Shown here in pieces: positions 16,225 through 32,965 of a stretch of 64,000 bases of DNA; the first letter of the stretch is position 1, and every line of letters begins with the position of its first letter. The translations under genes were made by a program, and so were the position numbers. The DNA lies in contig DJVR01000034.1 in NCBI GenBank assembly GCA_002441285.1, forward strand, positions 3,369 to 67,368, given 5' to 3'. The notes beneath the pieces were generated by a model, which was not told the DNA's origin, did no database searches, and saw only the letters and a list, made by a program, of their open reading frames with translations. Origin of the DNA: Candidatus Atribacteria bacterium UBA6251. Lineage in GTDB: Bacteria; Atribacterota; Phoenicimicrobiia; Phoenicimicrobiales; Phoenicimicrobiaceae.

Positions 16225-16599
16225 TTATGCTCGATAAAAAAACTTAAATCTATTTTTATTTTCTATATCAATAGCCTGGACATGTTCTTTTACTACTTCG
16301 GGGGGGCTGAATTTTACCAAACCTATTAAACAAAAAATTAAGATTAATAAGTCTTCAAAAAAACCTAAAAAAGGTAATAAAAAATCAGGTAATAAATCAA
16401 AAGGAGAAATAACATATAAAATTGCAGCGTATACTAATAGCTTTAGATAAAAAGAGACTCTTTTATCTCTTATTAAGCGTAAGGATAATTTAATAAAATT
16501 AGGGATATGGAATAAAATTCGTGCAATATATAGTTTTCTTTTTAAACTATTATAATCATTTTGGCTTTCTTCCGTAGACATATTATTTTCTATCTCCAT
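16225..16599 (-). CDS. DUF1232 (YkvA-like) small membrane protein
   Basis: 124 aa. Sequence (YAAILYVISPFDLLPDFLLPFLGFFEDLL) fits DUF1232. Confidence 0.5.
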   Translation of the reverse strand: MEIENNMSTEESQNDYNSLKRKLYIARILFHIPNFIKLSLRLIRDKRVSFYLKLLVYAAILYVISPFDLLPDFLLPFLGFFEDLLILIFCLIGLVKFSPPEVVKEHVQAIDIENKNRFKFFYRA

Positions 16600-16703
16600 A
16601 AAAAATAAAAATTTTCAAATTATTTATATTTTAGAAGGCATAAAAAAGATTTCAATACCTATTAATTTTAACACAATTAAAAGAATATCGTCAATTAAAC
16701 TAA

Positions 16704-16760
16704 AAAAGGGGACAGTCTACTTTTTACAATTACCTTTAAAAAAGTAGCCTGTCCCCTTTT
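16704..16760 (-). terminator. Intrinsic terminator after the small secreted-protein gene
   Basis: Long inverted repeat AAGGGGACAGTCTACTTTTT / AAAAAGTAGCCTGTCCCCTT, with a U-run on the minus-strand RNA. Confidence 0.7.
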
Positions 16761-16788
16761 ATTGGGGGTATAATGAATAATTTTTATT

Positions 16789-17194: not shown

Positions 17195-17290
17195 CACCTC
17201 CTTCGGTAATCCAGCCATCATAGCTATTAAATAGCTTTAGACCTGAGACTTTGCGTCCTACCCTTTCGGATAGTTTGCTATTATCGAGAG
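17195..17290 (-). ncRNA. c-di-GMP-I (GEMM) riboswitch candidate in the 5' UTR of the 16789-17190 gene
   Basis: Minus-strand RNA AUAGCAAACUAUCCGAAAGGGUAGGACGCAAAGUCUCAGGUCUAAAGCUAUUUAAUAGCUAUGAUGGCUGGAUUACCGAAGGAGGUG. This matches the Vc2-type consensus GGCAAACC-N-GAAA-N-GGGACGCAAAGCC-N-GGCCUAAA. The aptamer runs into the RBS. Confidence 0.7.
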
Positions 17291-17405: not shown

Positions 17406-20400
17406 TTATAATTTTATCTCAGCTAAACATTTATTTATCTCTTCAATAAATCTTTTTGTTCCTATCTCATACAATATCTTTCTTGCTTTCTTTAATTTTA
17501 AAGCAGCCTTTTTTAATTCATCCATTCCTTTCAGCATATCTCCCCATTCGTAATAGCTTTCAGCTTCATTAATTCTATCTCCAAATTTTGAATATAGTTT
17601 TATTGCTTGCTGAAAATATAGCTCAGCATCTACATAGTTTTTGCATTCCTTATATAGCCTTCCCTTTAATTTATAAATATCGGCAAAACCTAATTCGTCT
17701 TCTAATTCCTTAAATATTTTTTCTGCCTGGGAAATATAGTATTCCACTTCTTTTAATTCACTTTTTTTTAAATACTCTTCACCTAAATGAATATAATTAA
17801 TTCCTTTATTATAAATATCGCCAATTTTGTCTGCTATCTTTACACTTTCTTTTAAATAATGAATTGCTTTTTCTGAATCTCCTAAGGAAGAGTATGCAAA
17901 ACCAATATTATTCATAATATTAGAAACAACAATAATATTTTTATTCTTTTGAGCAATAGAAAGACTTTCTTGATAAGCTTCAATGGCTTTTTCCCATTTG
18001 CCTAACATATCATAATAAATACCAATGTTGTTTAAAGCCATCGCATAAACATCTAAAGCTTTTATCCTCTGAGAAAGATCAATACTTTCTTTAAGGTAAG
18101 AATATCCGGTAGAGGTATCTCCTTTAAAAATACTGGCTAATCCTATACTTTTCAAAATAATTGCCATTCTTTTTTGGTTATTCATTTCTATAGCAAGAGA
18201 AAGACTTTTTTTGAGATATTCGATTGATTTATCCCATTGTCCCATATCTCCATAAATATTTCCTAAATTAATCAAAATTAAAGATTCATTATCTTGATCT
18301 TTGATTTTCCTACTATATTTTAGAGCTTTATTAAAATTAGTTTTAGCCTCTTTTCTTTTGCCAATAACTGATTGGGAAAAAGCTAATTTATTATATATTT
18401 CTGAAAGTTTTTTTATTTGTTCATTATTCAGTCTATCTTGTGATTCTAGAATTTTAATACTATCTAAATAATAATAAATAGCATTTTTAAAAGCATATAA
18501 AAATTGAGCTTTATCTCCAGCCTTATTTAAGTAAAATAATGCTTTTTGCCAATTATCACTATTTTTAAAATGATAAGCTAATTCTTCTGATTTTGCGTCA
18601 ATCTTGGTAGAATAAATTTCTTCTATAGCTAAACCTATTTTGTTATGCAAATCTTTTCTAACCTCAAAAAGTAGGCTGTTATAAGCTATTTCTTGAATAA
18701 TTGAATGAATAAAAGCAAAATAATTTTTATGGCCAGTTGCAGGAGTAATTTCTTCAATAAACCTATAATTTTGTAATTTCTTTAGCGATTCTAATAAGAT
18801 TTTCTCTTCCTGGTTGATAACCTTTTTTAAAAGTTCTATTTCAATATTTTTTCCTAAAACTGAAGCTTGATATAATATTTCTTTTAAGGCTAAAGGAAGA
18901 AGATCAATTCTTGCGCGAGCAATACTTTGCACTGTATCCGGAATTTCAAAGTGATCAAAAACATCAGAGTATTTGCCTAATTTATCTTTTTCTACTAAAG
19001 ACCATCTTCTTTCCTCTATTCCACTAATAATTTCTTCGATAAACAAAGGGTTTCCATGGGCCATAGAAATTATCTTATCCTTCATTAAAGAAGAAATATA
19101 TTTTTCTTGGTCTAAAAAATTGATTAGCTTTTTAGATTCTTTATTTTTTAATGGTAATAATCTTATTTTTTTAACTTCAAATAAAGATATATTCTTTTTT
19201 AAAGAGTCTTGAAGACTATAAATAATTAAAACAGGATATTCTTTAATTTCTTTGGAAATTTGGGATAAAAATTCTGCAGAAGCAGTATCAATCCATTGCA
19301 TATCTTCAATAATTATAAGAAGAGGTTGTTGTATAGAGAGACTCCAGAATAATTTTTTCATAATCCCGATAAGTAAATCACTTTCTCTTTTAAATTGATT
19401 GGTTATTTTTTCTGTAAAATTAAGATTTGTCGATAAAAATCTTAAGAAATAAGAAGAAGCAAATAATAAGGAAGCATCAACCTCTTTTATCTTATTTTCT
19501 ATTTTCTTTTTAATCTCTTGAGGTTCATCTTCAAATTTTATTTGAAAAATTTTATTAAATATTTCTTTTATAATATAATATGGTTTTGATTCTTCCCAGG
19601 ATGTACAATTTGCTGATAGAAGGATGAATTTTTGGGTGTAAGAATCATTGGTAAGCTCTGAAATTAACCTTGTTTTACCTATTCCAGATTCCCCACTTAT
19701 TTCAACTATTTTTCCTCGCGATTGAAAGGAGTTTTTTAAGACTGCTTTTAAGGTTTTCAACTCTTTTTCTCTACCAATAAATTGAGTATAATATTTTCTT
19801 TTCTGCTCTGACAAAATATCTTTATTCTTTTCTCTCTTTAAAATATAAGCGGTTACTGGATTTTTCTTTCCTTTTATCTTTAATTCACGAGGTTTAGAAA
19901 ATATAAAAAAGTCTTTAATTCTTTGAAAAGTCTTTTCTCCAATTAATATACTACCAGGTGTGGATTTTTCCTGTAAACGAGAAGCCAAGTTTACCGTATC
20001 TCCTATCACCGTAAATTCTTTTCTGCAAGTAGAGCCAATTTCGCCAGAAATACATAATCCAGTATTAATCCCAATCCTTGCTTTCATACTTATTACTTTA
20101 TTTTTATTTTTTATTTTTCCGTTTTTAGCAATAGATTTCATAATCTCCAAACTTGCTCTCGCCGCTCTTTCTGGATCATTTTCATGACTAAAAGGTGTGC
20201 CAAATATAGCCATTAATCCATCACCCAAAAATTTATTAATACTCCCACCGTATTGCTCAATAATTGAAACTATAGGAGCAAAGACACTATTGATTACTTT
20301 GGTAGCCTTTTCGGGATCCATTCTTTCTGCTAAAGTGGTAAATCCATTTATATCAATAAATACTACCGTAGCTTCTCTTCTTTCGCTAGGTAGGCTTTCC

Positions 20401-20495
20401 TTTCCTTCTAATATCCTATAGGTCACCGCTTCTGGAACATAAGGTTTAAACAATTTTAATATTTTATTTTCTTGATTTTGTTTTTTCTTTTTCAT
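17406..20495 (-). CDS. Class III adenylate/guanylate cyclase domain + AAA/STAND ATPase + TPR repeats signalling protein
   Basis: 1029 aa. N-terminal CHD cyclase domain (VVFIDINGFTTLAE...FLGDGLMAIFG...RIGINTG). P-loop ISGESGIGKTRL. Long C-terminal TPR array. Confidence 0.8.
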   Translation of the reverse strand: MKKKKQNQENKILKLFKPYVPEAVTYRILEGKESLPSERREATVVFIDINGFTTLAERMDPEKATKVINSVFAPIVSIIEQYGGSINKFLGDGLMAIFGTPFSHENDPERAARASLEIMKSIAKNGKIKNKNKVISMKARIGINTGLCISGEIGSTCRKEFTVIGDTVNLASRLQEKSTPGSILIGEKTFQRIKDFFIFSKPRELKIKGKKNPVTAYILKREKNKDILSEQKRKYYTQFIGREKELKTLKAVLKNSFQSRGKIVEISGESGIGKTRLISELTNDSYTQKFILLSANCTSWEESKPYYIIKEIFNKIFQIKFEDEPQEIKKKIENKIKEVDASLLFASSYFLRFLSTNLNFTEKITNQFKRESDLLIGIMKKLFWSLSIQQPLLIIIEDMQWIDTASAEFLSQISKEIKEYPVLIIYSLQDSLKKNISLFEVKKIRLLPLKNKESKKLINFLDQEKYISSLMKDKIISMAHGNPLFIEEIISGIEERRWSLVEKDKLGKYSDVFDHFEIPDTVQSIARARIDLLPLALKEILYQASVLGKNIEIELLKKVINQEEKILLESLKKLQNYRFIEEITPATGHKNYFAFIHSIIQEIAYNSLLFEVRKDLHNKIGLAIEEIYSTKIDAKSEELAYHFKNSDNWQKALFYLNKAGDKAQFLYAFKNAIYYYLDSIKILESQDRLNNEQIKKLSEIYNKLAFSQSVIGKRKEAKTNFNKALKYSRKIKDQDNESLILINLGNIYGDMGQWDKSIEYLKKSLSLAIEMNNQKRMAIILKSIGLASIFKGDTSTGYSYLKESIDLSQRIKALDVYAMALNNIGIYYDMLGKWEKAIEAYQESLSIAQKNKNIIVVSNIMNNIGFAYSSLGDSEKAIHYLKESVKIADKIGDIYNKGINYIHLGEEYLKKSELKEVEYYISQAEKIFKELEDELGFADIYKLKGRLYKECKNYVDAELYFQQAIKLYSKFGDRINEAESYYEWGDMLKGMDELKKAALKLKKARKILYEIGTKRFIEEINKCLAEIKL

Positions 20496-20721
20496 TTTTT
20501 CCTTTTCCGAAGCAAATAAATCCGCCCACTACAACATAACTATTTTATAATAAATCAGGAATTGTTAATATTATAACAAAAGCAGGAAATTAAATAAAGT
20601 CCCAATAATAAAAGGGAACAGACTATTCTTTAGTATTTATTTTCTATAGAAATTAGTCTTTCCCCTTTTTATTATTAAATACCCGTAGGACAGGTGTCTC
20701 GCCTGCCAAATGACACAAAAA

Positions 20722-20762
20722 ATAGGCGAGCTATTTTTTTATATAACTCGCCTATTTCTAAT
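20722..20762 (-). terminator. Intrinsic terminator after the PKD-repeat gene
   Basis: Hairpin AATAGGCGAG...CTCGCCTATT followed by UUUUUUG on the minus-strand RNA. Confidence 0.7.
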
Positions 20763-20783
20763 TTATACTCATCAAATTAATAA

Positions 20784-22175
20784 TTATGGTCCAGTTACAA
20801 TAATTGACTGAAATGCATATCCGATATTTTCTTCTGAATCTTCTACTGTCAGCTGTACAAGATAAGTTCCTGCAGTACTGTAAGTATGAGTAGTTACCGG
20901 AGTAGGTGGTGTCTCATCATGTACCTCTATAGGGCTACCATCATTAAAGTCCCAGGTATAGCTGACTATAGTTGCACCAATTACCGAAGTAGTCGATTCT
21001 GATGCATCAAGTCCAACAGTAAAGGGAGCAGTTCCAGTTGCACTTGAAGGAGTAACCTTGATAACTGCATTTACTCCACTATCCACAGTAATGGTGACAC
21101 TTCCATAACCAACATTTCCTGCAGAATCCGTTATAGTTAGAACAACTATGTAAGTCCCAATATTTGTATAAGTATGAGAAGTAGTAACTCCTGTCCCGGT
21201 CGTTCCATCTCCAAAATCCCAACTATAATTAGCAGTCATAACTCCACATCCAGTTTCAAAAGTACTACCCGAAGCATCGAAATAGACTGTAAACGGAGCA
21301 GATCCTGTTGTACTCGGAGTAACCTGGATGTCCACACTTGTGACTCCTGTCTCTCCTACGGTAATTACTACTGTATCATAACCTTGTTTTCCCCAATAGT
21401 CAGTTACCGTTAATTTAACAATATAGGTACCACAACTACTATAAGTATGGGCTGCCGGCATAACTCCCGTTCCGGATGTTCCGTCTCCAAAATCCCAACT
21501 ATAACTGGCAATCCCGCGATCATCAGTAGAATCACTAGCATCGAAGATTACGGTAAAGGGTGCGGTTCCACTTACTCCAGGTATTACTTTAATCACTGCC
21601 TTTGGTGGTGTAAAGTCAATTCCTGGTTCTATAGCAGGTAAATTAACAGTAACCGATTTATTGATATTGTGACCGGCTCCATCGGTACCAAGTAAGGTTA
21701 TAGTACAAGTAAGTTCGGTTATTAAAGGATTCTTTTTTATATAATCTTTGACTTCTTGAAAATACAAAGGCATATTTTTAATTTCAGTAATTGGACCAGG
21801 GGTACCGGGAGTAGTGGATGGTTCAACATAAAAAGTAGCTCCCACCGTTTTAGTTAATGAACTTATTTTAGTATTTTCTTCATAATATTCGTATTTAAAA
21901 CCTGAACCAATAAATTCTACTTCATTTAAAGAATATACTTCCAAACTAATGGTGCCATCTTCTAAGTTAATTTCTGTATAATTCAATCTTATCTGCGCCT
22001 GGGGGTCAAAGATATTAAGAAGTCCAAAAGAAAGCCAGTTACACCCAACTAATGATATTATAAAACCTAACAATATGGTTATAAATAATATTTTATACAA
22101 ATTCTTTTTATTTTTATATTGCAAAGTCTTGTCCTCCTTTCGAATTATAATTTTGTCATTGCGAGCCTTCTGCAA
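20784..22175 (-). CDS. PKD-repeat surface (lipo)protein
   Basis: 463 aa. Lipobox-like LVGC after a hydrophobic segment. Four tandem PKD domains (YSWDFGDGTSGTG repeated three times, plus YTWDFNDGS). The annotated TTG start lies inside a dispersed repeat, so the true start is uncertain. Confidence 0.75.
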   Translation of the reverse strand: MQKARNDKIIIRKEDKTLQYKNKKNLYKILFITILLGFIISLVGCNWLSFGLLNIFDPQAQIRLNYTEINLEDGTISLEVYSLNEVEFIGSGFKYEYYEENTKISSLTKTVGATFYVEPSTTPGTPGPITEIKNMPLYFQEVKDYIKKNPLITELTCTITLLGTDGAGHNINKSVTVNLPAIEPGIDFTPPKAVIKVIPGVSGTAPFTVIFDASDSTDDRGIASYSWDFGDGTSGTGVMPAAHTYSSCGTYIVKLTVTDYWGKQGYDTVVITVGETGVTSVDIQVTPSTTGSAPFTVYFDASGSTFETGCGVMTANYSWDFGDGTTGTGVTTSHTYTNIGTYIVVLTITDSAGNVGYGSVTITVDSGVNAVIKVTPSSATGTAPFTVGLDASESTTSVIGATIVSYTWDFNDGSPIEVHDETPPTPVTTHTYSTAGTYLVQLTVEDSEENIGYAFQSIIVTGP

Positions 22176-22400
22176 GAAGGCGTGGCAATCTCAATTTTAT
22201 TTTTTCAATTATATGCCAACTTAGATTCCCGCTCTGAATTACCGCTTTCGCGGGAATGACATAATCAAATTAAAATGACATTTAATATTTTTCTTATAGG
22301 GGTCGGATTTATCCGACCCGTTTTAATTGCGGGTTCGATGAATCAAACCCCTACATTTCACCCTCACCCTACCCTCTCCCCTCAAGGGAGAGGAAATAGA
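22150..22400. repeat. Composite of dispersed GTCATT-hairpin repeat modules plus GC-rich hairpins
   Basis: GTCATTGCGAGCCTTCTGCAAGAAGGCGTGGCAATCTCA at 22155-22193. A reverse-orientation GTCATTCCCGCGAAAGCGG module at 22226-22262. Hairpins GGGTCGGATTTATCCGACCC and CCTCTCCCCTCAAGGGAGAGG. Related copies at about 27260 and about 32150. Confidence 0.75.
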
Positions 22401-22416
22401 AACGATGACAAAAATA

Positions 22417-24321
22417 TTAGTAATCTAACTTGTGAGCAGTGATAAGGATAATTATTTCTGTTTTCTTGTTTTTGCTATTAGTAAATTTGAATAACTCACC
22501 AAATATAGGTATATCTCCTAATAACGGTATTTTCGTTGTAGTTTTTATCTGTTCTGAAGTAATTAATCCTCCTATTACTACCGTCTCACCCAATTTAGAT
22601 CGAATTATTACCTCCTCTTCTCGAGAATTAATTACAGGATAACCTATATACTGCTCTGTTCCCAGTGAATTTACTGTTACATAAACATCCATTGTTATGG
22701 GCCCATCAGTACTTAAATAAGGAGTAATATTTAAAGTTAATCCTACTTTTTTATAATCAATAGTTTCCACACCTTCAGCATCTCTCTTTTTTATAGGAAT
22801 TTGTTGACCAGTTTCTATTCTAGCTTCTTTCCCATCCAAAGTAAGAACCTTAGGATTAGATAGAATATTAGTCTTTCCTTCAGTTTGCAAGGCTTTTAGC
22901 GTTGCTTCAATTAAACCACTTCTTTCGAAAGAACCCCCTAAAGTTATTTCACCTATAGTAATTTGACCTTCTAATTTAGCATCACCACTCACCCACTTAA
23001 TTCCTAAGTCTTTTTCCCCATCTAAAGTAATTTCAACGACTTTAGCTTCTATCATTATCTGAGGTACACGCTTATCCAGACCAGCAATCATTGTTTCTAC
23101 ATTATCCAATTGTTCTTCTGTACCTTTTACAATAATTTCACTCTGCCGGCTATCAATATTTATTCTTTCTTCTTCAGGAATAATAATGCTGAGCATATTC
23201 TTTATAGCCTCAATTTCATCATCAAAGATAGCATTATTTATCTTAAAGGTTTTAGTAAATAATTGAGAATCAATCCTGGAGATTATCTCTTCAACCTTTT
23301 TTATATCTTCTTTTGTGCCAGAGATGATTAGATTGTTTAATCTTGGATCGGCTACAATATTTATTTTACTTTTTTCTTCTTCTTTTAGATAATTATCTAA
23401 AACTCTTTTAGCTTCTTCAGCGGTTGTATTTTTTAGTTCAAATATTTGAGTAATGGTGGACTGTCTTTCTTTAATTTTATTTTTAGTGGTAATGTAGACC
23501 GTATTCTCGGAAATTTCCATATAATCCAAATCTTTAATTAATAAAATGGCATTTAAGGCTTCTTTAAAGCTAACTTTTTTGGGGAAATTCAGAGTAATGG
23601 TTCCACTTACCGAGTCATCGGTGATAAGATTAATTTCAGCCCTAGCAAATAAAAGATTTAAAATATCTCGAACTTCGGAATCTTTTTTAAAATTAATTTC
23701 CAAAGGTTCCATCTTATTATCCGCTAAATCAATAATTGAAACCTTAGGGGGTTCTTCTTTTTCCAGCTTGACTGGTTTACTAATTACCGGGGTAACTGTA
23801 AATACTTGAGCTTCAGGAGCAGTAAATTCTTCATAATCATAAATATCAATATACAATAGCTTTTTCTCTTCCGATAATTTTACTTCATACTTTGCCTTTT
23901 GAAACAAATCTACCACAAATCTGGTAATAGGTATCGGTTCAGTTTCAAATTGTCCACATCTTACCTGTTTAACTGCTCCCAAATTTAAAAATAAAATATT
24001 TTTAGATAAATCTTGGATGTTATAAATTGCATTCTTTACATCAATTACAATTCTATCCGGAGAATCGAAATAACTAACTTCATAATCTTGGATTGCTCCA
24101 TTAGCTTTAATGGTAAGATGAGTAAAGTTAGGAACTTTTTTATACCAGATATTAGTAAAAGAAATATTATCTGTCTCAGCGTTAGCTATAGCTAATATAA
24201 AGGAAGTTAATAAAAATAATATTAAAACGAAAATTAAATTTTTTATTCTTCTAATTCTTGTAGTTGTTTCAACTGGTGGAAAAATAATCATATCTTTTTT
24301 ATTCATTAGAAGCTTCCTCAC
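22417..24321 (-). CDS. pilQ: Type IV pilus secretin PilQ (AMIN domain + secretin domain)
   Basis: 634 aa. N-terminal AMIN-like region. C-terminal secretin signature (GETVVIGGLI...IPLLGDIPIFGELFKF). Confidence 0.85.
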   Translation of the reverse strand: MRKLLMNKKDMIIFPPVETTTRIRRIKNLIFVLILFLLTSFILAIANAETDNISFTNIWYKKVPNFTHLTIKANGAIQDYEVSYFDSPDRIVIDVKNAIYNIQDLSKNILFLNLGAVKQVRCGQFETEPIPITRFVVDLFQKAKYEVKLSEEKKLLYIDIYDYEEFTAPEAQVFTVTPVISKPVKLEKEEPPKVSIIDLADNKMEPLEINFKKDSEVRDILNLLFARAEINLITDDSVSGTITLNFPKKVSFKEALNAILLIKDLDYMEISENTVYITTKNKIKERQSTITQIFELKNTTAEEAKRVLDNYLKEEEKSKINIVADPRLNNLIISGTKEDIKKVEEIISRIDSQLFTKTFKINNAIFDDEIEAIKNMLSIIIPEEERINIDSRQSEIIVKGTEEQLDNVETMIAGLDKRVPQIMIEAKVVEITLDGEKDLGIKWVSGDAKLEGQITIGEITLGGSFERSGLIEATLKALQTEGKTNILSNPKVLTLDGKEARIETGQQIPIKKRDAEGVETIDYKKVGLTLNITPYLSTDGPITMDVYVTVNSLGTEQYIGYPVINSREEEVIIRSKLGETVVIGGLITSEQIKTTTKIPLLGDIPIFGELFKFTNSKNKKTEIIILITAHKLDY

Positions 24322-24964
24322 CTCCTATTTTCAGAGAAAATTCATAATCTTCTATTTCCAGTATTACTTCATTTTTTCTTATCTCTTTGACAATATATTT
24401 ATCTAATAATATATCGTATAATTTAGCAATAAAAGTATCACCATCTATTTCTATCATAGCTACGCGATTACTTTCATTACCGACTATACCATTTAATTTA
24501 GTATCGGGAGGTAATTCCGGTTTGTATATAGCAGTTTGTTTCCACCAGGCTTCCTCCTCTTCAGTTGGAGCCTCTTCTTCTTTTTTAGAAGAGAAAACAC
24601 TTACTTTTTGAAAAGGATTGCGATAGCTAGGAGGTTCATAAGGTTCATAAGCAAAAATTTTCTCTTCGTAAGCTTGTTTTCTTTTTTCCATTTCAATATC
24701 GAAAGGAGTTTTTTCTTGAACCACAGGTTCCTCTTTTTGCAAGGGAGAAGAAACAGCAGTAGAGGTAGTAGTATTCGTTTTAGTAGAAAAAGTTGCTACT
24801 TTAGGGGTACTTGCCTTTGGTGGAAAAAACATCGGATACCCTAAATAGGCAATTGCTCCTAATAAGATTACTAATATTAAAAACAACCATAACCACCTTC
24901 GGCTACGAGAACCTTGGTCTCTTTCTGTTTTTTTAAAAATATTTTTGAAAGATATTTTTTTCAT
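24299..24964 (-). CDS. PilP-like pilus assembly lipoprotein (putative)
   Basis: 221 aa. N-terminal TM, Pro/Thr-rich linker, C-terminal beta domain. Position between pilO and pilQ. Confidence 0.4.
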   Translation of the reverse strand: MKKISFKNIFKKTERDQGSRSRRWLWLFLILVILLGAIAYLGYPMFFPPKASTPKVATFSTKTNTTTSTAVSSPLQKEEPVVQEKTPFDIEMEKRKQAYEEKIFAYEPYEPPSYRNPFQKVSVFSSKKEEEAPTEEEEAWWKQTAIYKPELPPDTKLNGIVGNESNRVAMIEIDGDTFIAKLYDILLDKYIVKEIRKNEVILEIEDYEFSLKIGGEEASNE

Positions 24965-24967
24965 TTT

Positions 24968-25522
24968 CTATGGCGTACCTTCTTTTCTTAATAGATAAGT
25001 AAGCATACTTATAGAAATATTTAATTTATCGGGATCTTTACCACCTTTACTAATATTTAGAGATTGAACATCAATAATACGAGGTAGGTTTTCCAGTCGA
25101 TCCAGATAGAAGATTAGATCAAAATAATTAGCAGCAAGATTCATAGAAATAGGCATTTTCCCATAGATCCTTTCTTTCTCCCAGATGATATTTTGAGGAG
25201 TAAAGTTGGTAAAATCTACTTTAAACTCAGTCATAGTATCTTGAATCATTACCAATAAATCAGGAATCTCTTTTTCTTTAGGCAACATTACCTCTAAAAA
25301 AGCTAATTTTTCTTTCAAAGCGGCATATTCTGCTTTTAAGGGACCTAATTGAGCAGCAATCTTTTTACCCTGTTCAATCTTTTGAGCAGTAGTTTGAATA
25401 TCTCGATCTAATTGTTCTATTTTTTGCATCCTAGGCTGATAAATATATAAATAGTTAACTCCCACAATTAAGATAGTTAAAAGTAAGAGTAGAAAGATCA
25501 CTATGCCCTTTCTTAATTTCAT
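24968..25522 (-). CDS. pilO: Type IV pilus assembly protein PilO
   Basis: 184 aa. Single TM plus coiled coil. pilMNOPQ context. Confidence 0.6.
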   Translation of the reverse strand: MKLRKGIVIFLLLLLTILIVGVNYLYIYQPRMQKIEQLDRDIQTTAQKIEQGKKIAAQLGPLKAEYAALKEKLAFLEVMLPKEKEIPDLLVMIQDTMTEFKVDFTNFTPQNIIWEKERIYGKMPISMNLAANYFDLIFYLDRLENLPRIIDVQSLNISKGGKDPDKLNISISMLTYLLRKEGTP

Positions 25523-25552
25523 AAACTAAATATTTCCTTTCTTTTTTAGCCT

Positions 25553-26122
25553 TTATGGTTTTACTTTCTTAGGTATAAATATTCCGGATAATTTAAAATT
25601 AACTATTTCTGTTTCTATATCATCTGCTTCACGTAAATTAGTTTTATGAACATAAGCCAATTCGATATTATCAAAAGTGGAGTTATTCTTTAAAGCCACC
25701 ATATACTTGGCAATTAAATAATTGTTATAGGTATTAGCAGTAAAATTAAAGGTTTGATTGGCGCTTAAACTAATGTTATCTACCCAAACTTCATCCAGTA
25801 TAGAAGCGCTGAATTCACCCAGAATACGGGATAAACGAGATTGATTATCGATTAACCCCTGAATAACCATAATCCGATCTTCGATAACCTTTTTATCTTT
25901 TTCTAAATCTTTTACTTCTTTGATGATCTTTTCAATAGCTGCTAGTTCAGCCTTCATTACCTTTAATTGTTGTTCACGACTATCGATTTGAATCTCTAAG
26001 TAATAATAGAGGTAAATAGAGGCCATTATTAAAAAAGAAAAGAATAAAATGATTATAAATCTACTAAATCTAAATTTCTCCTTCTCTTTATATTCGCTTG
26101 GTAATAAGTTAATATTTGTCAT
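25553..26122 (-). CDS. pilN: Type IV pilus assembly protein PilN
   Basis: 189 aa. N-terminal INLLP motif and single TM. Confidence 0.65.
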   Translation of the reverse strand: MTNINLLPSEYKEKEKFRFSRFIIILFFSFLIMASIYLYYYLEIQIDSREQQLKVMKAELAAIEKIIKEVKDLEKDKKVIEDRIMVIQGLIDNQSRLSRILGEFSASILDEVWVDNISLSANQTFNFTANTYNNYLIAKYMVALKNNSTFDNIELAYVHKTNLREADDIETEIVNFKLSGIFIPKKVKP

Positions 26123-26131
26123 CTTGATGGT

Positions 26132-27238
26132 TTACCTTTCTCTTTTAGCTAAACCTATTACTGTAGCCAGGGTGGATTTAATCTTATTTAGCCTCTTTAA
26201 ATCAAATTCAGCCTCATTAATCCTGATTCCTTTCCAAGGGTCACCTATTTTAGTAGTAATTTCAAATTCATTGGTGAGGAATTCTTCAATACCAGAAATA
26301 TTGGCACTACCTCCGCAAAGAATAATTTTACTATATTTTACTTGCTGATTTTGAGTTTTATAATAATTTAATGATTTTCTTACCTCTTTAGCTAATTGAT
26401 CTAAAATCTTTAACATAATTTTTTCAGCTTCATCGCTCTTTTTTTCGCCTGGAGATTCTTCAGAGGGATTAATTATTTTAGTTTCTCTTTTTAGTTTTTC
26501 TGCTTCACTAAAGGTTAGATTTAATGATTTGGCAATTGCTTTGGTAATATCGTTACCTCCGATAAGGATATCTCGGGCAAATTTCAAGTTACCTTTTTCG
26601 GTCAGGGTAAGGATGGTAGTGCTTGCTCCTATAGATAAAATTGCATCAGTAACTGTTTCTATAGATTGTTTTTCTTTTTCTTCTTGGACCTTTTCTTTTG
26701 GTTCATTTTGACTTTTATTTAAATAAAAGTCAAAAGCTCTGATATTGGCAGCAGAGCTTATATCCACTATTTTAGGAATTATCCGTACCTTTTTTAAGGC
26801 CTCCATATAAGGTTGAATAACTGATTTAGGAACCGCAACCAGTAAAACTCTCATCATCTGATTGCCATCCTTTTCGGTAAATTCCTCAATCTTTTCCGCA
26901 TCAATTACCGCTTCATCAAGATTATAAGGGACATACTTAGGTGCTTCCCATAGCACTCCTGGTAATATTTCTTTCTCTTCCATTAAAGGCAGAATAATTT
27001 CTCGAATAATTAATTTTTGTCCAGTAATAGCAATAATCGCTCGATTATCTCTCATTCTAATCTTACTTAATAAATCAGCTAAGGCCTCAGCAACCGCAAT
27101 GGGATTTATAATTTCACCATTAGCCACCGCACCTTCCGGACTAAAATTAGTTCCGAAACTATCCAGTTCATATCCAGCACCAACTTTGTTCAGTTTTAAT
27201 ACTTTAATCGAACGTGCACCAAAATCGATTGCAAACAT
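26132..27238 (-). CDS. pilM: Type IV pilus assembly protein PilM (actin-like ATPase fold)
   Basis: 368 aa. PilM/FtsA-like sequence (MFAIDFGARSIKVLKL...). Confidence 0.85.
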   Translation of the reverse strand: MFAIDFGARSIKVLKLNKVGAGYELDSFGTNFSPEGAVANGEIINPIAVAEALADLLSKIRMRDNRAIIAITGQKLIIREIILPLMEEKEILPGVLWEAPKYVPYNLDEAVIDAEKIEEFTEKDGNQMMRVLLVAVPKSVIQPYMEALKKVRIIPKIVDISSAANIRAFDFYLNKSQNEPKEKVQEEKEKQSIETVTDAILSIGASTTILTLTEKGNLKFARDILIGGNDITKAIAKSLNLTFSEAEKLKRETKIINPSEESPGEKKSDEAEKIMLKILDQLAKEVRKSLNYYKTQNQQVKYSKIILCGGSANISGIEEFLTNEFEITTKIGDPWKGIRINEAEFDLKRLNKIKSTLATVIGLAKRER

Positions 27239-27259
27239 ATCTACTCTTTATTTCCTTTC

Positions 27260-27375
27260 TGTCATTCCCGCGAAAGCGGGAATCCATCTTCTCCGTCATT
27301 GCGAAGAATCCACCCTTTCTGTCATTGCGAGGGTGGCACTCAAGTAATATTGAGTGCCACCCGTGGCAATCTCAT
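27260..27375. repeat. Three tandem GTCATT-hairpin repeat modules upstream of pilM
   Basis: GTCATTCCCGCGAAAGCGGGAATCCATCTTCTCC, GTCATTGCGAAGAATCCACCCTTTCT, and GTCATTGCGAGGGTGGCACTCAAGTAATATTGAGTGCCACCCGTGGCAATCTCA. Confidence 0.8.
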
Positions 27376-27425
27376 ATTACTATATCACATCATTGTAAAC
27401 TTACCATATGAATTTTTTTTTCTAT

Positions 27426-27654
27426 ACTCGATAATTTTCTTTCTTGTTTTATTCTTTCTCGATACTATCTTATGTTGTTTCTTTTCTGTTTTCTTTCTTG
27501 ACGCGATAATGTTCTACTAAATGCCAAAGCTATCTCTTTAAGCTCGTAATTCTTTCCCACACTATAACTATCCGCTATTATTATACGACAACCTACGATT
27601 CAAGCCCTTATCTTCTCTTGGACTCGATACTCGATACTATATGCTCGATACTAT
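27426..27654. promoter_or_regulatory. Array of CTCGATACT direct repeats in the pilM upstream region
   Basis: (C)TCGATA(C/A)T occurs at least five times (27426, 27459, 27623, 27630, 27644) within about 230 bp, 190-420 bp upstream of the pilM start. Confidence 0.4.
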
Positions 27655-27732
27655 TTTTATGCTGTTTTTATACATATTTTCTCCATAACTTCTAAAAATC
27701 CTTCTTTTTATGAAAAATAATTTAAAAATTAT

Positions 27733-28956
27733 TTAATATACCTCTCTCCAGGATGTTTTTTTAAAGAAACGGTCACCGGTAGTTGTAAATTGATTCATAG
27801 ATGTATCATAATTAATTATTGATTTATTACGAACATATACAGTATCTGCAATCACCGAACCGGTAACTTCACATCCATTTTTTAATTCAATAAAACCTTC
27901 AGAATTACCATCAGGTAAAATTGATTGAACTATTCCTTTAAGAATAGATGATTTAGCGTAAATTTTGATATTTCCCTGTGCTACTAAAGCAAGTGCGGTA
28001 ATTGGGTCATCTGCATTAATATAAGTACTGTCATTATTAATATTAAAAGTTGCACCTTCTTTAATTTCCACATTACCAGTAGCAATAATTGCACCATTGT
28101 TAACATTTATTGTTGAGCCATTTTTAGCTTCTAAACTTCCTTCAATATAATGTATTCCCGTCCAATTTTCTATATCACCATTTCCCAGAATAACATCACT
28201 TGTGTGATAATGAATATTGCCTGATGCGGCTTCATCAGCCAAAGCTCTCACTTTTAATTCATCATAATCAACTGTAGGAATAGTCTCTTTTGGAACCCCC
28301 GTATTACTACCATCACTAGTATCATCTAAGTCATTATTTTTTCCGGAAGAAGTAGCGTTTCCATCATAATTTTCATCAAACTTACCCGAAACTAAGATAT
28401 CATCATTAGAATGCACATCACCAGTAATATCAGGCCCAGGAGTGCCCTGGAAAAGAATTATTTTATCAGCAAGAATGGCATATTTATACATCGCTATTAT
28501 TATGTAATCAATTTCCGCGGTTACTTCTATTTTTCGCTTTCCTGAGGAAAATTTACCTCCTAAAACTACTCCAGTTGAAGTAATTTTAATCTTATCAGTA
28601 TCAATATCCTCAATGCTTACTTGATAATATTCGGTAGCTGTCCCTGGGTCAGGTTCATTAGTAGGACGCCACTCTATTCCCTCTCCACCATTTTCAACGA
28701 TTGTATTTAATTTCCATAGAGCGTCTTCAATGCCTGCATCAGCCAAATAAAAAGCTTTATTAGATTCCCGTTGAAGGGTAGACAACTTCGTATCATTATT
28801 AGTCATAGTAAGCAGGGCTACGGCTAAAGTAACTAATACAAAAACAAAGATTAAAGTTGTCAAAAGAGCCATGCCTTTTTGATTTAACAGAATATTTCTT
28901 ATTTTTTTATCTTTAATCTTCTTTTTTCTTTTTTTCATTTCTATCACCCCTCTCAA
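27733..28956 (-). CDS. PilX-like minor pilin / pilus assembly protein with beta-helix-like repeats
   Basis: 407 aa. PilX_N-type N-terminus (QKGMALLTTLIFVFVLVTLAVALL). Repeat-rich C-terminal region (GNVEIKEGATFNINND). Confidence 0.6.
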   Translation of the reverse strand: MRGVIEMKKRKKKIKDKKIRNILLNQKGMALLTTLIFVFVLVTLAVALLTMTNNDTKLSTLQRESNKAFYLADAGIEDALWKLNTIVENGGEGIEWRPTNEPDPGTATEYYQVSIEDIDTDKIKITSTGVVLGGKFSSGKRKIEVTAEIDYIIIAMYKYAILADKIILFQGTPGPDITGDVHSNDDILVSGKFDENYDGNATSSGKNNDLDDTSDGSNTGVPKETIPTVDYDELKVRALADEAASGNIHYHTSDVILGNGDIENWTGIHYIEGSLEAKNGSTINVNNGAIIATGNVEIKEGATFNINNDSTYINADDPITALALVAQGNIKIYAKSSILKGIVQSILPDGNSEGFIELKNGCEVTGSVIADTVYVRNKSIINYDTSMNQFTTTGDRFFKKTSWREVY

Positions 28957-29072
28957 GTGGATTATTAGTCAATTTATCGATTAACTAATTCATCAATTTC
29001 AGTACTTCATTTAACCATTCCGTAAAACAGGCGTCTCGCCTGTCTATAATTTTAATAGAAACAAAAAATCTA

Positions 29073-29645
29073 CTATAAACCATAATTTCTCAGATTAACA
29101 TCCGTATTTAAAGTTATATCAGGTTTGCCATCATCATCAACATCTACTTTTAAATTTATGTGTATTTTAGATATTTTAGGCAATGTAGAGATATCAGGAG
29201 AATCATATTTTACTCCATTAGAATCATAGTATTCAAAAATATCTTCCTCACTTATTTTAAGTACATTATCAATTAAAGGATTGCTGGTTAAATTTTTTAT
29301 TCTTTGTATGGTAGTACCAAATAAAGCATAGGTAACAGAATAAGCGGAACTTCCACCTAAAGGAGGAATATCAACAGTAACAGAAATTTCTGAACCACTA
29401 GATATATTACTACCCTCTCTTATTTCTCTTACCATTCTATCCATAGCCTGACGTGCATTTCTCTGTGCCTCTAATTGACTCTGGCCTGCTACCCAGGATT
29501 TAGCTCCCCCTGTGAAAAAAGTTACCAATCCTAAAACAATTAATCCTAGAATAGCCACTACAACCATCATTTCGATTAAACTAAAACCTTTTTGTTTATA
29601 CTTACAATGAATTATCTTCATAATATTTCCCTTTTTAAATATCAC
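29073..29645 (-). CDS. Prepilin-type minor pseudopilin (PilV/PilW/GspJ-like)
   Basis: 190 aa. Class III signal KQKG|FSLIEMMVVVAILGLIVLG. Confidence 0.75.
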   Translation of the reverse strand: MIFKKGNIMKIIHCKYKQKGFSLIEMMVVVAILGLIVLGLVTFFTGGAKSWVAGQSQLEAQRNARQAMDRMVREIREGSNISSGSEISVTVDIPPLGGSSAYSVTYALFGTTIQRIKNLTSNPLIDNVLKISEEDIFEYYDSNGVKYDSPDISTLPKISKIHINLKVDVDDDGKPDITLNTDVNLRNYGL

Positions 29646-29671
29646 AAGATATTTTTGTAATACAATCTTAA

Positions 29672-32296
29672 TTATTCTACTACTGTTATTGGTACAGTAT
29701 ATTCATATGCTCCAAAATTAGTATAAAAAGTAACTGATAATGATTTACCTTCCATATTTGTGCTAAAGGTCAATCTGATAGTAGATTCACCAGGTAACAA
29801 ATTTGCATTGATATTATCTTCGATATGGGGGCTAGTAGAATTTCCGGTATCAATGATAGGGTCATAATCGTCTGCATTATATGGACTTTTAATTTCGATT
29901 TTCCTTAGTTTCGAAGGATCATAGTCCCACTCAACCTTCATACTACTTAAATTAAGTGTAGGTCCATTAACTTTAATATTAAAAGTGACAATTTTATTGT
30001 TTAACCAATATTTTAACGAATTATCTACTAAGATTAAGTTTATTATATTTACTGGAATATTTACAGTTGAAGATGGCTGTGTAATTATATCACCTGAAGC
30101 TTCTGCTTCTACTATTACTGTACCTGGATTAATAGTCGATTGTAAAGTGACTTCTGCAATTCCATTTTCTACATATACCTGTTTGAAGGAAGTTCCATCA
30201 GAAAATTTTCCTGACGTCTCTCCTTCTGTAATTGAAAAATCGACTACACCTGAATAATCAGGAACTATAATACCAGGTTCATCCACTATTGTTGCAGTTA
30301 TTATACAAGTATCCCCACCTACAAAGATATATGCAGGATTAGCAACCAAATTAATATGATGTGGTGCTGATTTTTTGTGAAATAACACCTCTATTTCTAT
30401 TGGATTGTCAGGATTTCCTGGTGGTCCATCTGCATTAGGTGGTAAATCACTTGAATAAATCTTAATACGTGCAGTAACTGTAGATGTAACTTCATAAGGA
30501 TATAAAGTTGCAGTAGCCATACCCCCGGTTAATGTTATTTCCTGAGTAGATTCACCAGAGGAAAAAGACCCTATTCCATTCGTGATTTTAAATGTGATGA
30601 AATTACCGTAAACTATATCCCCATCTTCAGATTTCATAATAGCCGTAATATCAGAAGGTATTATTGTATCTTCATCTAATTCAATAATTGATGGGTCAAA
30701 AGTAACATCGATATGGTGAGCTACAAGCGGACTTAAAATATTTATTTTTGTAGATCCTGAAATTAATTCCCCCCCACTGTCCTTTGCGCTAATTGTTATT
30801 TCTTGAGGAAACTCTCCAATTGAGGATGCTTTAAAAATACAGGTTTGAGAGTTTTCACCTTTAAATGTTAAATTAATAGAACCTGTACTACCGTTTAAGG
30901 TACCATAATCATCGGGGAAGTCAGTAATTACAACAGTTTTTGGAATACCAGCCTCACCAAAACTAACCGGTTTATTATTTTCATCTACAATAGTTACAGT
31001 TATAGTAGTTTCCTCATTCGGATAAATAGACTTTTTCTTTGTAGAAACTAAGATAGATTTAGCATCTCCAGTAAAGGTTACTTCAGTATATCCCATATCT
31101 AAATCAGGAGCTGATGCAGTTATCCCTACTACTCCAGGAGTTCCAGTGGACATTAAGTTTACAGTTGTTGGATTAGTAGGGTCAGCAGATACAGAATTAA
31201 TAGTTGAAGTTGATAAAGAACCAATGTCAGGGTTAGAAACGTTCAATGTTATTGTTCCTGAATATGCTATAGGAGTTTTATAATCAGCTTTTACTACAGT
31301 TACATTGATAGTTGAATTTTCACCTACAGGAAGAATTCTATCTTCTTCGGTTGCAGGTTCAAGAATTATTCCTACAGCTCCAGTGGTTACTCTAATATTA
31401 ACTGTATCAGTTACATCCTCGGGTCCTCCTAAATTAGCTGAAGCTTGAATCTTTTCTATGCCATCTATAGATTCACCTGGTTCAAATGCAAAAGAGTAAA
31501 ATGTAATTTTAGCTTTTCCATTAGTTGTATGGACAATTATAGTGTCTGGGTCATCTTTAGTTCTTGATGCATTATTTATATATCCAACTGGGTTATAATC
31601 ATCATTTGGAGTAGGGATAATAAAGGAAAAACTAATATCTCCTTCCCAATCTGTTATAGTATTACCATTATTGTCTTTAATTTCTGCAAAAAGTGCAACC
31701 TCAGAATCAGGTATAATAGTATAATAAGGAGAGGCATAAAGAATAATACCAGCAGCATCAGAAACTTTACTTGTATTTGGCTTATTATATAATATCGTTG
31801 AGGCTTCTTCTGTTTTTATATTTCCTTTTCTATCCATCCAACGAACCTGCGTAATTACTTTTTTCAAAGTTACTACTTCGCCTTTTTTTTCTAAGTCTAA
31901 AACAATAGAGCCTCTATGAAATTTTGTGCCAGGGATAAGAGTAATGGGTTCATCTTTTACTTTATTAAAATCCATATTTTTAAAATCTTCTATCGTTTCC
32001 CGCAAATAGTTAGTAGCAACTGTCCGGTCTCGGGCGTCAGCCATTCCCATAAAGCCGGTGCTATAGGCGTAAAAGATTCCCACAATGGCCAGAGCTAAAA
32101 TAGCTACCGCTACCATTAATTCAACTAAGGAAAAACCTTTGAGATTGCTTCCCCTGCTTTCGCTGGTGCAGGCTTGCTTCGCTTCTCGCAATGACAGATA
32201 AGATGGATTCCCTCTTTCGCGGGAATGACAGAAGGGAAACAGCCCTCGCAATGACAGGGAAAATTTTATTTTTTTTGATAATATTTTATTTAACAT
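29672..32296 (-). CDS. Giant prepilin-type protein with Ig-like/Big repeats (putative pilus tip adhesin)
   Basis: 874-aa ORF. Prepilin cleavage/methylation motif NLKG|FSLVELMVAVAILALAIVGIF at about 32135, followed by about 800 aa of beta-rich repeat domains. The annotated N-terminal 55 codons overlap the 32150-32275 repeat, so the true start is probably near 32190. Confidence 0.7.
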   Translation of the reverse strand: MLNKILSKKIKFSLSLRGLFPFCHSRERGNPSYLSLREAKQACTSESRGSNLKGFSLVELMVAVAILALAIVGIFYAYSTGFMGMADARDRTVATNYLRETIEDFKNMDFNKVKDEPITLIPGTKFHRGSIVLDLEKKGEVVTLKKVITQVRWMDRKGNIKTEEASTILYNKPNTSKVSDAAGIILYASPYYTIIPDSEVALFAEIKDNNGNTITDWEGDISFSFIIPTPNDDYNPVGYINNASRTKDDPDTIIVHTTNGKAKITFYSFAFEPGESIDGIEKIQASANLGGPEDVTDTVNIRVTTGAVGIILEPATEEDRILPVGENSTINVTVVKADYKTPIAYSGTITLNVSNPDIGSLSTSTINSVSADPTNPTTVNLMSTGTPGVVGITASAPDLDMGYTEVTFTGDAKSILVSTKKKSIYPNEETTITVTIVDENNKPVSFGEAGIPKTVVITDFPDDYGTLNGSTGSINLTFKGENSQTCIFKASSIGEFPQEITISAKDSGGELISGSTKINILSPLVAHHIDVTFDPSIIELDEDTIIPSDITAIMKSEDGDIVYGNFITFKITNGIGSFSSGESTQEITLTGGMATATLYPYEVTSTVTARIKIYSSDLPPNADGPPGNPDNPIEIEVLFHKKSAPHHINLVANPAYIFVGGDTCIITATIVDEPGIIVPDYSGVVDFSITEGETSGKFSDGTSFKQVYVENGIAEVTLQSTINPGTVIVEAEASGDIITQPSSTVNIPVNIINLILVDNSLKYWLNNKIVTFNIKVNGPTLNLSSMKVEWDYDPSKLRKIEIKSPYNADDYDPIIDTGNSTSPHIEDNINANLLPGESTIRLTFSTNMEGKSLSVTFYTNFGAYEYTVPITVVE
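32150..32275. repeat. Three GTCATT-hairpin repeat modules (reverse orientation) at the 5' end of the giant pilin gene
   Basis: Reverse complement reads GTCATTGCGAGGGCTGTTTCCCTTCT, GTCATTCCCGCGAAAGAGGGAATCCATCTTATCT, and GTCATTGCGAGAAGCGAAGCAAGC...GAAGCAATCTCA. Confidence 0.8.
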
Positions 32297-32479
32297 ACTA
32301 TCACCTCAACAATTAGTCTGCCGGTCGACCAATCTGCCAGTCTAAATAGTCATTAGTAAATAGTGGATAATCGTTAGTAAAGAAAATACAAAAAATAAAT
32401 TCAAAAAAACGTAAACCATACACCTCGTAGAACAGGCATCATTAAGCCCACAATTTATGCCCGAAAGCTAACGACTAAT

Positions 32480-32965
32480 TTACCAATTCTCCGGAGGGTC
32501 TGGACTTATTCTTACTCGGGCAGTTACCGGTGTCATAATCACATAAAGAATCTTTCCTCTTTTATTTTTCAAAGTAACTGTTCCTCCCATACTAGGGACT
32601 CCATTCGGATAAAAATAGACTTTATTGTTTGTAAAATTAGTCTTAAATAATTCTACTCCTTCTAATTTTATTTCTTTATAAAGTTCACTTTCACTTCCTT
32701 TAAGTATTTTATATTTATTTGAGGAAGTTGGCCAATTAAAAGTTGTATAAAATTCTATTTTGTAATATACACCCTCATAAAATGCCCTCGACTGAGTATT
32801 TTTTAATTCTGAACTTAAAAGTGCTGCTGCTGTGTTTAATTTATTCCATTGTATCAAATAATCTAATCCGTTTATGCCAAGACCAAGCAGTAAGGATATT
32901 ATACCTCCTACGACCATTAATTCGATAAGGGTAAAACCTTGTTTAAGACCAGGGCTACGCTTCAT
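32480..32965 (-). CDS. FimT/GspH-like minor pseudopilin
   Basis: 161 aa. Class III signal LKQG|FTLIELMVVGGIISLLLGL. Confidence 0.75.
   Translation of the reverse strand: MKRSPGLKQGFTLIELMVVGGIISLLLGLGINGLDYLIQWNKLNTAAALLSSELKNTQSRAFYEGVYYKIEFYTTFNWPTSSNKYKILKGSESELYKEIKLEGVELFKTNFTNNKVYFYPNGVPSMGGTVTLKNKRGKILYVIMTPVTARVRISPDPPENW

Follow-up and report, generated by a model that had tools for sequence, protein, structure and literature searches.

Short extragenic palindromes that lie in mosaic clusters, such as the repetitive extragenic palindromic (REP) sequences and the bacterial interspersed mosaic elements (BIMEs), are recognized as single-stranded DNA (ssDNA) hairpins by a dedicated small nuclease, the gene of which is bracketed by inverted copies of the repeat. 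Here we describe repeats that are REP-like in the broad sense of short palindromes in mosaic clusters, as the first-pass annotation of this DNA had proposed, in the type IV pilus gene cluster of a 64-kb stretch (hereafter the window, 64,000 nt) from Candidatus Atribacteria bacterium UBA6251. The repeats are GTCATT-headed hairpin modules of two types, A and B, which stand in short arrays at three sites. The reading that we consider probable, at roughly 0.7, is that these modules are oriented DNA hairpin repeats of the class related to the nuclease Ssn, arranged in mosaic arrays similar to the Neisseria intergenic mosaic elements (NIMEs).

The closest described system is the Neisseria Transformation Sequence (NTS), CGTCATTCCCGCGMAVGCGGGAATCYRG, together with its nuclease (Chenal et al., Nat Commun 2025, PMC11893778). 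SsnA, a GIY-YIG protein of 94 aa with a single domain, binds to this hairpin, and its cut falls a few nucleotides 5' of the repeat head, exclusively in ssDNA and on one strand only; ssDNA binding and cleavage have been demonstrated with proteins from Neisseria and Wolbachia (PMC11893778). In the same report, a broader Ssn-related motif (SRM) was defined by the pattern HGTCWYN(0-2)YYVSBRHN(0-5)WNVSBRGN(0-2)RNCYNB, ssn genes were found bracketed by NTS copies in many phyla, Rickettsia was among the genera with the most SRM copies, and transforming DNA flanked by NTS showed reduced integration in N. meningitidis. The repeats of the window resemble this NTS/SRM-Ssn system (cd10448) in the type A core GTCATTCCCGCGAAAGCGGGAATCC, in the succession of GTC head, palindrome and trailing C, in their intergenic and clustered placement near pilus genes, as in Neisseria, and in the NTS-ssn-NTS cassette that is present in relatives. 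They differ from it in their host, an Atribacterota genome of ~31% G+C with no ssn gene found in 70 kb of source contig, and in arrays that mix type A with type B and other hairpins. Additionally, one array lies inside a coding region, compared to the ~2% of NTS copies located inside genes in N. meningitidis, and type B is neither covered by the published motif definition nor linked to ssn.

The dRS3 repeats and NIMEs were reported as Neisseria-specific (Bentley et al. 2007, PMC1797815). Like the NIMEs, in which ATTCCC(N8)GGGAAT hairpins are interleaved with other short repeat families, the arrays described here occupy syntenic positions with a repeat number and array length that vary between genomes, adjoin fast-diverging surface genes including pilin loci (a pattern that the giant pilin of the window fits), and contain other, inserted genes (here hicBA in L133 and, by shared sequence, in L135; L numbers denote loci used for comparison). 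The two differ in that the spacers are 4-10 nt here and 50-150 bp RS elements in the NIMEs, and that here the modules themselves are the units. The Rickettsia palindromic elements (PMC10969869) provide a likeness for an in-frame palindromic insertion that leaves the open reading frame (ORF) open, which is found here in a prepilin leader in two species. However, those elements are ~150 bp long and leave a conserved peptide in mature proteins, whereas the insertion here consists of three modules of 26-56 nt in a leader that is cleaved off. The REP/BIME systems, with their REP-associated tyrosine transposase (RAYT), differ in having an HUH Y1 enzyme instead of a GIY-YIG protein and a GTAG head instead of GTCAT.

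Hairpin modules in the pilus gene cluster

The window has a G+C content of ~31% and carries nearly all of its genes on the minus strand; its source contig (European Nucleotide Archive ERZ27315056 k141_432385, 70,153 bp) reaches ~6 kb beyond it. The strain itself is also present in SRR13427971, SRR13427964, SRR5323235 and JGI 3300001592. Eight GTCATT-headed modules were identified at three sites, 22155-22260, 27261-27374 and 32140-32255, where approximately none would be expected by chance. The motif GTCATTSCSRG gave four exact matches in the window against 0.03 expected, the 23-nt type A core gave three (0.00 expected), all with at most one mismatch in a search that allowed up to three, and GTCATTGCGAG gave five at up to one mismatch (0.27 expected). 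No further module copies were found elsewhere in the window or in the ~6 kb of additional source contig. These counts against chance bear out the three sites given in the first-pass annotation, with several of its details corrected below.

Type A has the sequence TGTCATTCCCGCGAAAGCGGGAATCCAT, and type B is laid out as TGTCATTGCGAG, a covarying hairpin and CGTGGCAATCTC. Each site holds two or three differing modules, separated by linkers of 4-10 nt, which appear as G+C-rich islets in the AT-rich window. The window contains ~23 intergenic gaps of at least 80 nt, and the module sites number three, all inside 10 kb of the pilus cluster. Pfam searches of this cluster identified a PKD lipoprotein, a PilQ secretin, PilM, a PilX-like protein, several N-methyl pilins, an 874-aa pilin-like protein (the giant pilin) and a prepilin peptidase. 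The features are as follows.

22155-22193, plus strand: locus 1, full type B module, GTCATTGCGAG, hairpin CCTTCT-GCAA-GAAGG, then CGTGGCAATCTCA; -16.1 kcal/mol
22222-22260, minus strand: locus 1, type A with an enlarged loop, GTCATTCCCGCGAAAGCGGTAATTCAGAGCGGGAATCTAA; 1 mismatch to the 23-nt core
22299-22409, minus strand: locus 1, three further GC-rich hairpin modules of the same mosaic
22299-22320, minus strand: locus 1, hairpin GGGTCGGATAAATCCGACCCC
22325-22352, minus strand: locus 1, hairpin GGGGTTTGATTCATCGAACCCGC
22359-22409, minus strand: locus 1, "type C" GTCATCGTTTCTATTTCCTCTCCCTTGAGGGGAGAGGGTAGGGTGAGGG
27261-27290, plus strand: locus 2, type A in canonical NTS/SRM form, (T)GTCATTCCCGCGAAAGCGGGAATCCATCTT; 0 mismatches to the core
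27295-27320, plus strand: locus 2, B-short, a 5' half-module, GTCATTGCGAAGAATCCACCCTTTCT
27321-27374, plus strand: locus 2, B-long with a 13-bp distal stem, GGGTGGCACTCAA / TTGAGTGCCACCC; -32.5 kcal/mol
27375-27410, minus strand: promoter-like block AAGTTTACAATGATGTGATATAGTAATAT with extended -10-like TGTGATATAGT; the array starts 5 nt past the hexamer
29672-32296, minus strand: giant type IV pilin-like gene, N_methyl motif at residues 52-75
32140-32195, minus strand: locus 3, B-long, GTCATTGCGAGAAGCGAAGCAAGCCTGCACCAGCGAAAGCAGGGGAAGCAATCTCA
32200-32229, minus strand: locus 3, type A with one stem substitution, GTCATTCCCGCGAAAGAGGGAATCCATCTT
32230-32255, minus strand: locus 3, B-short, first in the pilin-leader array, GTCATTGCGAGGGCTGTTTCCCTTCT

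At locus 1, the type B module is antisense to the PKD gene and lies ~20 nt upstream of its GGAGG ribosome-binding site. The type A module faces it in inverted orientation, an inversion that the first-pass annotation had missed. Gene callers place the start of the PKD gene 17 codons further in (446 aa), at TTG 22124 with GGAGG 7 nt upstream; with this start, the type B module is in the 5' untranslated region (5'-UTR) and not in coding sequence. Relatives of type C were found upstream of pilM in L132 and L136, and the GGGTCNGATAAATCNGACCC hairpin of locus 1 was seen again beside ssn cassettes (L243). At locus 2, the type A module lies antisense to pilM as the array module closest to the pilM ribosome-binding site and forms a perfect 8-bp stem with a GAAA loop (-13.6 kcal/mol), while the 3' end of B-long adjoins the promoter-like block. 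The hairpin variant of this B-long copy also occurs at other sites in other species (L135 7508; L140). The B-short module of locus 3 has a close likeness in L129.

The A-to-B composites of locus 2 (plus strand) and locus 3 (minus strand) are mutually inverted, as they are in L133, and enclose the genes for the PilX-like protein, the pilin-like protein and the giant pilin, along with the pilM promoter-like block. Among 245 loci, the A-to-B junction GGGAATCCATCTTNNCYGTCATTGCGA was found only in these Atribacterota pilus loci. The inverted composites, with 27375-32139 between them, could serve as a substrate for inversion or gene conversion; no inversion or gene-conversion variants between them were seen.

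The interpretation of the arrays as CRISPR (clustered regularly interspaced short palindromic repeats) was rejected, in agreement with the earlier annotation, as the modules differ in type, their linkers are 4-10 nt long and a repeat search of the window gave no such family. The modules are also probably not the ends of an insertion sequence (IS) or miniature inverted-repeat transposable element, as that annotation had suggested; each module is itself one hairpin of 26-56 nt. Comparison of empty and filled pilin leaders gave no clear target duplication beyond an ambiguous A run, and no transposase was found among the selected ORFs scanned in the window. Searches of Rfam, with gathering scores on the whole window and permissive E-values on 20400-32500, left the modules unmatched.

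Type A modules and ssn-like genes in relatives

Positions 27260-27287 match the SRM pattern exactly, as the only such match in the window, and depart from the 28-nt NTS at its two end positions, 1 and 28, and nowhere else. The remaining two type A copies, one with the stem substitution and one with the enlarged loop, are outside the strict pattern; all three have GTC before the stem and C after it. Type A was also present in plasmid and chromosome records of sphingomonads, Azospirillum, Neisseria and Legionella. Judged by its sequence, type A is an NTS/SRM repeat with a core identical to that of the Neisseria NTS.

Additional evidence was provided by the neighborhoods of ssn-like genes in relatives. 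PilM of the window is 62-68% identical to PilM of Atribacterota metagenome-assembled genomes (MAGs). In L128, a MAG of Ca. Phoenicimicrobium oleiphilum, a 104-aa ORF matching the GIY-YIG family (PF01541, E 1.7e-16) is located 7 kb downstream of pilM (13849-14241), with a type A module in sense orientation 33 nt upstream and another, in antisense, directly after the stop codon. The assignment of these genes in relatives was based on Pfam PF01541 together with a single-domain size of ~100 aa (103-104 aa). The L128 protein was used to fetch 80 metagenome loci, with homologues 64-100% identical that represent one Ssn clade, and nearly all of these loci showed the same type A bracket. Type A density across them was 4.9/kb at up to 100 nt from ssn (73 copies) and 0.04/kb at 2-5 kb, an enrichment of more than 100-fold above background. 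Close homologues of the L128 protein number at least 7824 in the protein collection, and the family is conserved at 64-92% identity across hosts of 26-56% G+C.

In several Atribacterota, the ssn cassette is embedded in a neighborhood like that of the window (a cyclase, a 133-aa protein, DUF1232 and a MiaB-like gene), at either of two syntenic positions that flank the DUF1232 gene between the 133-aa and MiaB-like genes (compared across L128 13728-14613, L243, L244, L245, L153 and L170). Both positions are empty in the window (16197-16225; 16600-16788), and the presence or absence of the cassette at syntenic sites indicates that the ssn cassette itself is polymorphic. These Atribacterota cassettes seem to be bounded by longer inverted sequences beyond type A, for example AGCGAAAAGCGCAAAACCATA... 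and its reverse complement. Searches by tblastn with GIY-YIG probe sequences gave no match in the window or in 120 viral loci that carry type B, and the same probes recovered the L128 gene. Three Ssn variants from Logan were traced to samples other than that of the source organism and gave no tie to it.

More divergent Ssn genes have copies of GTCATTGCCGGGCTTGACCCGGCAATCC on both sides, and this repeat has the ATTGC/GCAAT stem base of type B. Small GIY-YIG genes of a different, UPF0213-like clade were also observed (L178 2561-3384; L217 2699-3558). One of them is bracketed by another hairpin repeat (GGTCGTTGAGTAG, hairpin, CGTATCGAAACGAC), and the other adjoins a tRNA-like sequence with repeated GTCCCGA... 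hairpins. These are hints of further nuclease-repeat pairs beyond Ssn/NTS.

Type B modules and half-module ladders

Both types of module are widespread in viral contigs, plasmids and chromosomes, which clearly contradicts the refuting case named in the first-pass annotation, a repeat confined to the three loci of the window. An exact-pattern scan found type B in at least 120 IMG/VR stretches, with 166 distinct sequences, and type B is also intergenic in replicons of Halomonas, Methylosinus, Methylocystis and Novosphingobium. The flanks (GTC, ATTGC...GCAAT, C) were fixed by the search pattern, and their constancy is not independent evidence. The insert between them ranges from 7 to 58 nt, and 89% of the 166 distinct copies fold better than versions with a shuffled insert. 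In 20 copies of 38 nt, an equal-length set that includes the 22155-22193 module, 92.5% of distal-stem cells are paired, and 37 cells are changed on both sides compared to 13.7±2.7 in shuffled sets, with none of 500 shuffles reaching the observed value. When partner columns were slid as a control, pairing dropped to 25-55%.

Types A and B have in common the GTC head, a stem opening with ATT and closing with AAT, the trailing C and an association with half-module ladders. In 81% of type B copies a T stands at position -1, and the flank on the 5' side is poor in G; other GTCATT-headed hairpins co-occur in type B-bearing contigs. The 120 viral loci contain 15 matches to the SRM pattern, none of which is a type B module. 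Clustering of ORFs neighboring type B gave no recurrent partner other than phage structural families from related contigs, no consistent gene was found between inverted type B pairs, and no nuclease was found near type B in the annotated plasmid contexts of Methylosinus, Halomonas and Methylocystis. A full-text literature search with the type B sequence and the peptides it would encode returned no relevant paper. The earlier suggestion that the modules are binding sites of a dedicated protein fits type A, an NTS/SRM repeat of the kind targeted by Ssn (PMC11893778) that brackets an Ssn-like gene in relatives; for type B, no partner gene emerged. Likewise, types A and B had been treated as one family, a grouping that we do not retain, given that type A is linked to ssn and type B is not.

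The short B forms are 5' half-modules, that is, single units of the kind that builds tandem ladders. A ladder unit comprises GTCATT, a stem of ~5-7 nt and a pyrimidine-rich linker of 9-10 nt, with a period of 20-23 nt. Ladders adjoin full modules of both types (L128 14231-14384, L095 3027-3140 and many of the 80 ssn loci); in L128, 7.7 tandem 20-nt half-modules extend beyond the antisense type A that follows the ssn-like gene. That ladders stand beside modules of both types suggests that a single mechanism generates them.

Array polymorphism upstream of pilM

The block AAGTTTAYRATGRTGTGATATAGTAATAT upstream of pilM, including its extended -10-like sequence, is common to seven Atribacterota species, while the other intergenic DNA has diverged. 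This conserved block is promoter-like and is presumed to function as the pilM promoter. It is followed at once by the modules, antisense to pilM, and then by AAGGAG and the ATG. The modules differ by species, with one B in L127 and L128, one A in L139, B and A in L134, and longer arrays in the window and L129. At least one GTCATT-headed module is present in 12 of the 13 relatives that retain upstream sequence, and L138 has none. The difference in module content between species at the same site indicates a dynamic hot spot at the presumed pilM transcription start, and the arrays are insertions relative to orthologous empty sites.

In L133, a hicB-hicA pair (9345-9765; PF15919, E 5.6e-10; PF07927, E 2.2e-18) is located inside the array, between the promoter-like block and pilM. 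The upstream sequence of L135 is near-identical to that of L133, which suggests that hicBA is present there as well. The position of hicBA within the array indicates that arrays serve as landing sites for other genes. In two independent Logan assemblies of this strain, the contig breaks off within the array upstream of pilM (L001 1-26; L002 1-102), and many Atribacterota MAG contigs start just upstream of pilM; the contig ends at arrays indicate that the repeats break short-read assemblies.

An array in the giant pilin leader

The giant pilin gene has its ATG at 32296 and its mature part from GGT 32137, and the two are joined in frame over a 116-nt array, resulting in a 53-codon leader. The 3' end of the B-long module (32140-32195) continues directly into AAA GGT TTT, which corresponds to the prepilin K, G(-1) and F(+1), and L133 has the same junction. 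Array-free orthologues (L128, L132 and L140) have 11-codon leaders of the form MLKINKxLSKx|GF, and L133 has the same succession of B-short, A and B-long between leader codons and K-G-F, giving a 48-codon leader. The distance from the ATG to the G(-1) codon is 159 nt in the window and 144 nt in L133, in frame in both. Between the two arrays there are indels of 21 nt and 6 nt (counted by hand); that both lengths are multiples of three is weak evidence that translation begins at the ancestral ATG. However, the array is open in all three frames, and an in-frame TTG in the last module is a possible start. The giant pilin orthologues (29672-32137 compared to L128, L132, L133 and L140) are 33-38% identical, compared to 62-68% for PilM.

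These results also revise two earlier interpretations of the sites. Overlap of the repeats with the 5' ends of two genes had been described; for the PKD gene, this was an artefact of ORF extension, and for the giant pilin it is confirmed and even stronger, as the array is in frame inside the leader coding region. Additionally, the three sites are not operon boundaries in an insulating sense, as they correspond to the 5'-UTRs of pilM and the PKD gene and to a leader-peptide coding region. A role in transcription insulation or termination is unsupported because module orientation is mixed, no T tracts follow the A or B modules, and no terminator-like site lies on them. A generic promoter and terminator scan found sites no commoner than in shuffled sequence, an uninformative result in AT-rich DNA.

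Proposed mechanism and alternative explanations

Each repeat has a fixed 5' head, (T)GTC, a stem that opens with ATT and closes with AAT, and a following C. In the proposed mechanism, the repeats may spread and reshuffle via ssDNA intermediates processed by an Ssn-type nuclease, and would accumulate where they are tolerated, such as the gap between promoter and ribosome-binding site or a dispensable leader peptide. If the genome encodes Ssn, the pilus genes would be marked for cleavage whenever they are single-stranded, for example as incoming transforming DNA. The 5' hairpins on the pilM and PKD mRNAs and the five-fold longer prepilin leader would then be side effects, which the host may or may not exploit.

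Several observations weigh against this explanation. An ssn or GIY-YIG gene was not found in the window or in the 70-kb source contig, and this absence, together with the empty syntenic positions, makes a resident nuclease an assumption for the source genome. No type B copy in the window fits the published SRM pattern, none occurs within 100 nt of the 80 ssn genes of the one Ssn clade sampled (type B is at background density elsewhere in those loci), and none of the 120 B-bearing viral loci (~1 Mb) contains an Ssn-like ORF. Due to the failure of the SRM pattern and the lack of a link to ssn, type B is described here as SRM-like in its working and is not filed as a member. Most likely, it is a sister family handled like type A. 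Finally, the retention of modules at the pilM site in 12 of 13 relatives could reflect host selection for a role at the RNA level instead of selfish persistence.

That role is the core of an alternative in which the hairpins are cis-acting RNA elements of the host, 5'-UTR stem-loops that would stabilize the transcripts of pilM, the PKD gene and the pilin, regulate them, or serve as operon insulators. The arrays indeed lie exactly between the conserved promoter-like block and the pilM ribosome-binding site in many species, at least one module is retained at this site in 12 of 13 relatives (although the types differ), the type B module of locus 1 is ~20 nt from the PKD ribosome-binding site, and the covariation of the type B distal stem indicates that structure is selected rather than sequence. 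However, covariation is equally expected of a DNA hairpin, and the modules run against transcription at pilM, with it at the pilin and in both directions at locus 1. The modules are also found in unrelated surroundings in viral contigs, plasmids of Proteobacteria and many phyla, type A is enriched more than 100-fold at ssn genes, and the modules have neither an Rfam match nor a terminator-like T tract. We thus regard an RNA role as unlikely to be the primary explanation; as a secondary, exapted effect, it is compatible with Ssn-related DNA repeats. Less probable still is that the modules are REP/BIME elements mobilized by an IS200/IS605-like Y1 transposase (a RAYT) instead of a GIY-YIG enzyme. 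In favor of this, mosaic arrays of short palindromes look BIME-like, and an Atribacterota relative, L245, encodes a Y1_Tnp protein (3654-4181, PF01797, E 1.1e-8). That Y1 gene, however, is bracketed by a different, GTAG-headed repeat, GTAGGACAGGCGTCTCGCCTGTC (L245 3700-3730 and 4183-4209), which weakens this explanation, as does the lack of a GTAG head in the A and B modules and the bracketing of ssn, not of a Y1 gene, by type A.

The position of type B allows two further readings. In one, type B belongs to an unrelated system, with its own dedicated protein or none, and merely co-accumulates with type A in permissive intergenic DNA. The missing spatial link to ssn, the mismatch to the SRM pattern and the abundance of type B in phage-like contigs without any Ssn-like gene point in this direction. 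Against it are the GTC head, ATT/AAT stem base, trailing C, pyrimidine-rich 5' flank and half-module ladders common to both types, the fixed A-to-B composite junction at several Atribacterota sites, and the hairpins with the same ATTGC stem base that flank some Ssn genes, and we consider it improbable, slightly more so than a primary RNA role. In the other, type B is an undescribed, very widespread and oriented ssDNA hairpin signal, with its own nuclease or as a second class of Ssn substrate, and the A/B arrays were recruited into the pilus locus. We consider this reading doubtful. If true, the arrays would couple pilus and competence genes to Ssn control of incoming ssDNA, or act as 5'-UTR and leader modules.

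Other features of the window

A separate REP-like, GTAG-headed repeat, GTAGGACAGGCGTCTCGCCTGTC, is present in the window at 20685-20707 and 29022-29044, both on the plus strand. Together with the Y1 gene of L245, it indicates that the lineage carries both REP-RAYT and SRM-Ssn repeat systems. Three c-di-GMP-I riboswitch aptamers were identified on the minus strand, at 17202-17289, 37405-37510 and 37599-37693 (84, 60 and 77 bits). Two of them stand in tandem upstream of a pilin-like gene (36840-37262, N_methyl motif), and one is upstream of a 133-aa ORF with no Pfam match. The minus strand also carries a 6S RNA (56147-56381, 97 bits) and a cluster of seven tRNA genes (6386-6996).

Implications

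The findings are mostly explained by known biology, as described in the 2025 Ssn paper, with type A now found in a further phylum. The literature searched covers neither type B nor the insertion in the leader. For annotation, the repeats are a source of spurious ORF extensions and of small "hypothetical proteins". Type B is a strongly covarying hairpin that the published motif does not include and that is abundant in phage-like contigs and in several phyla, and the prepilin leader represents a coding region in which an in-frame repeat array has been kept in two species. Altogether, these observations extend the Ssn/NTS system to Atribacterota, an uncultivated subsurface phylum, and NIME-like mosaic arrays, once thought to be Neisseria-specific, recur here at pilus genes in positions that are syntenic but dynamic.

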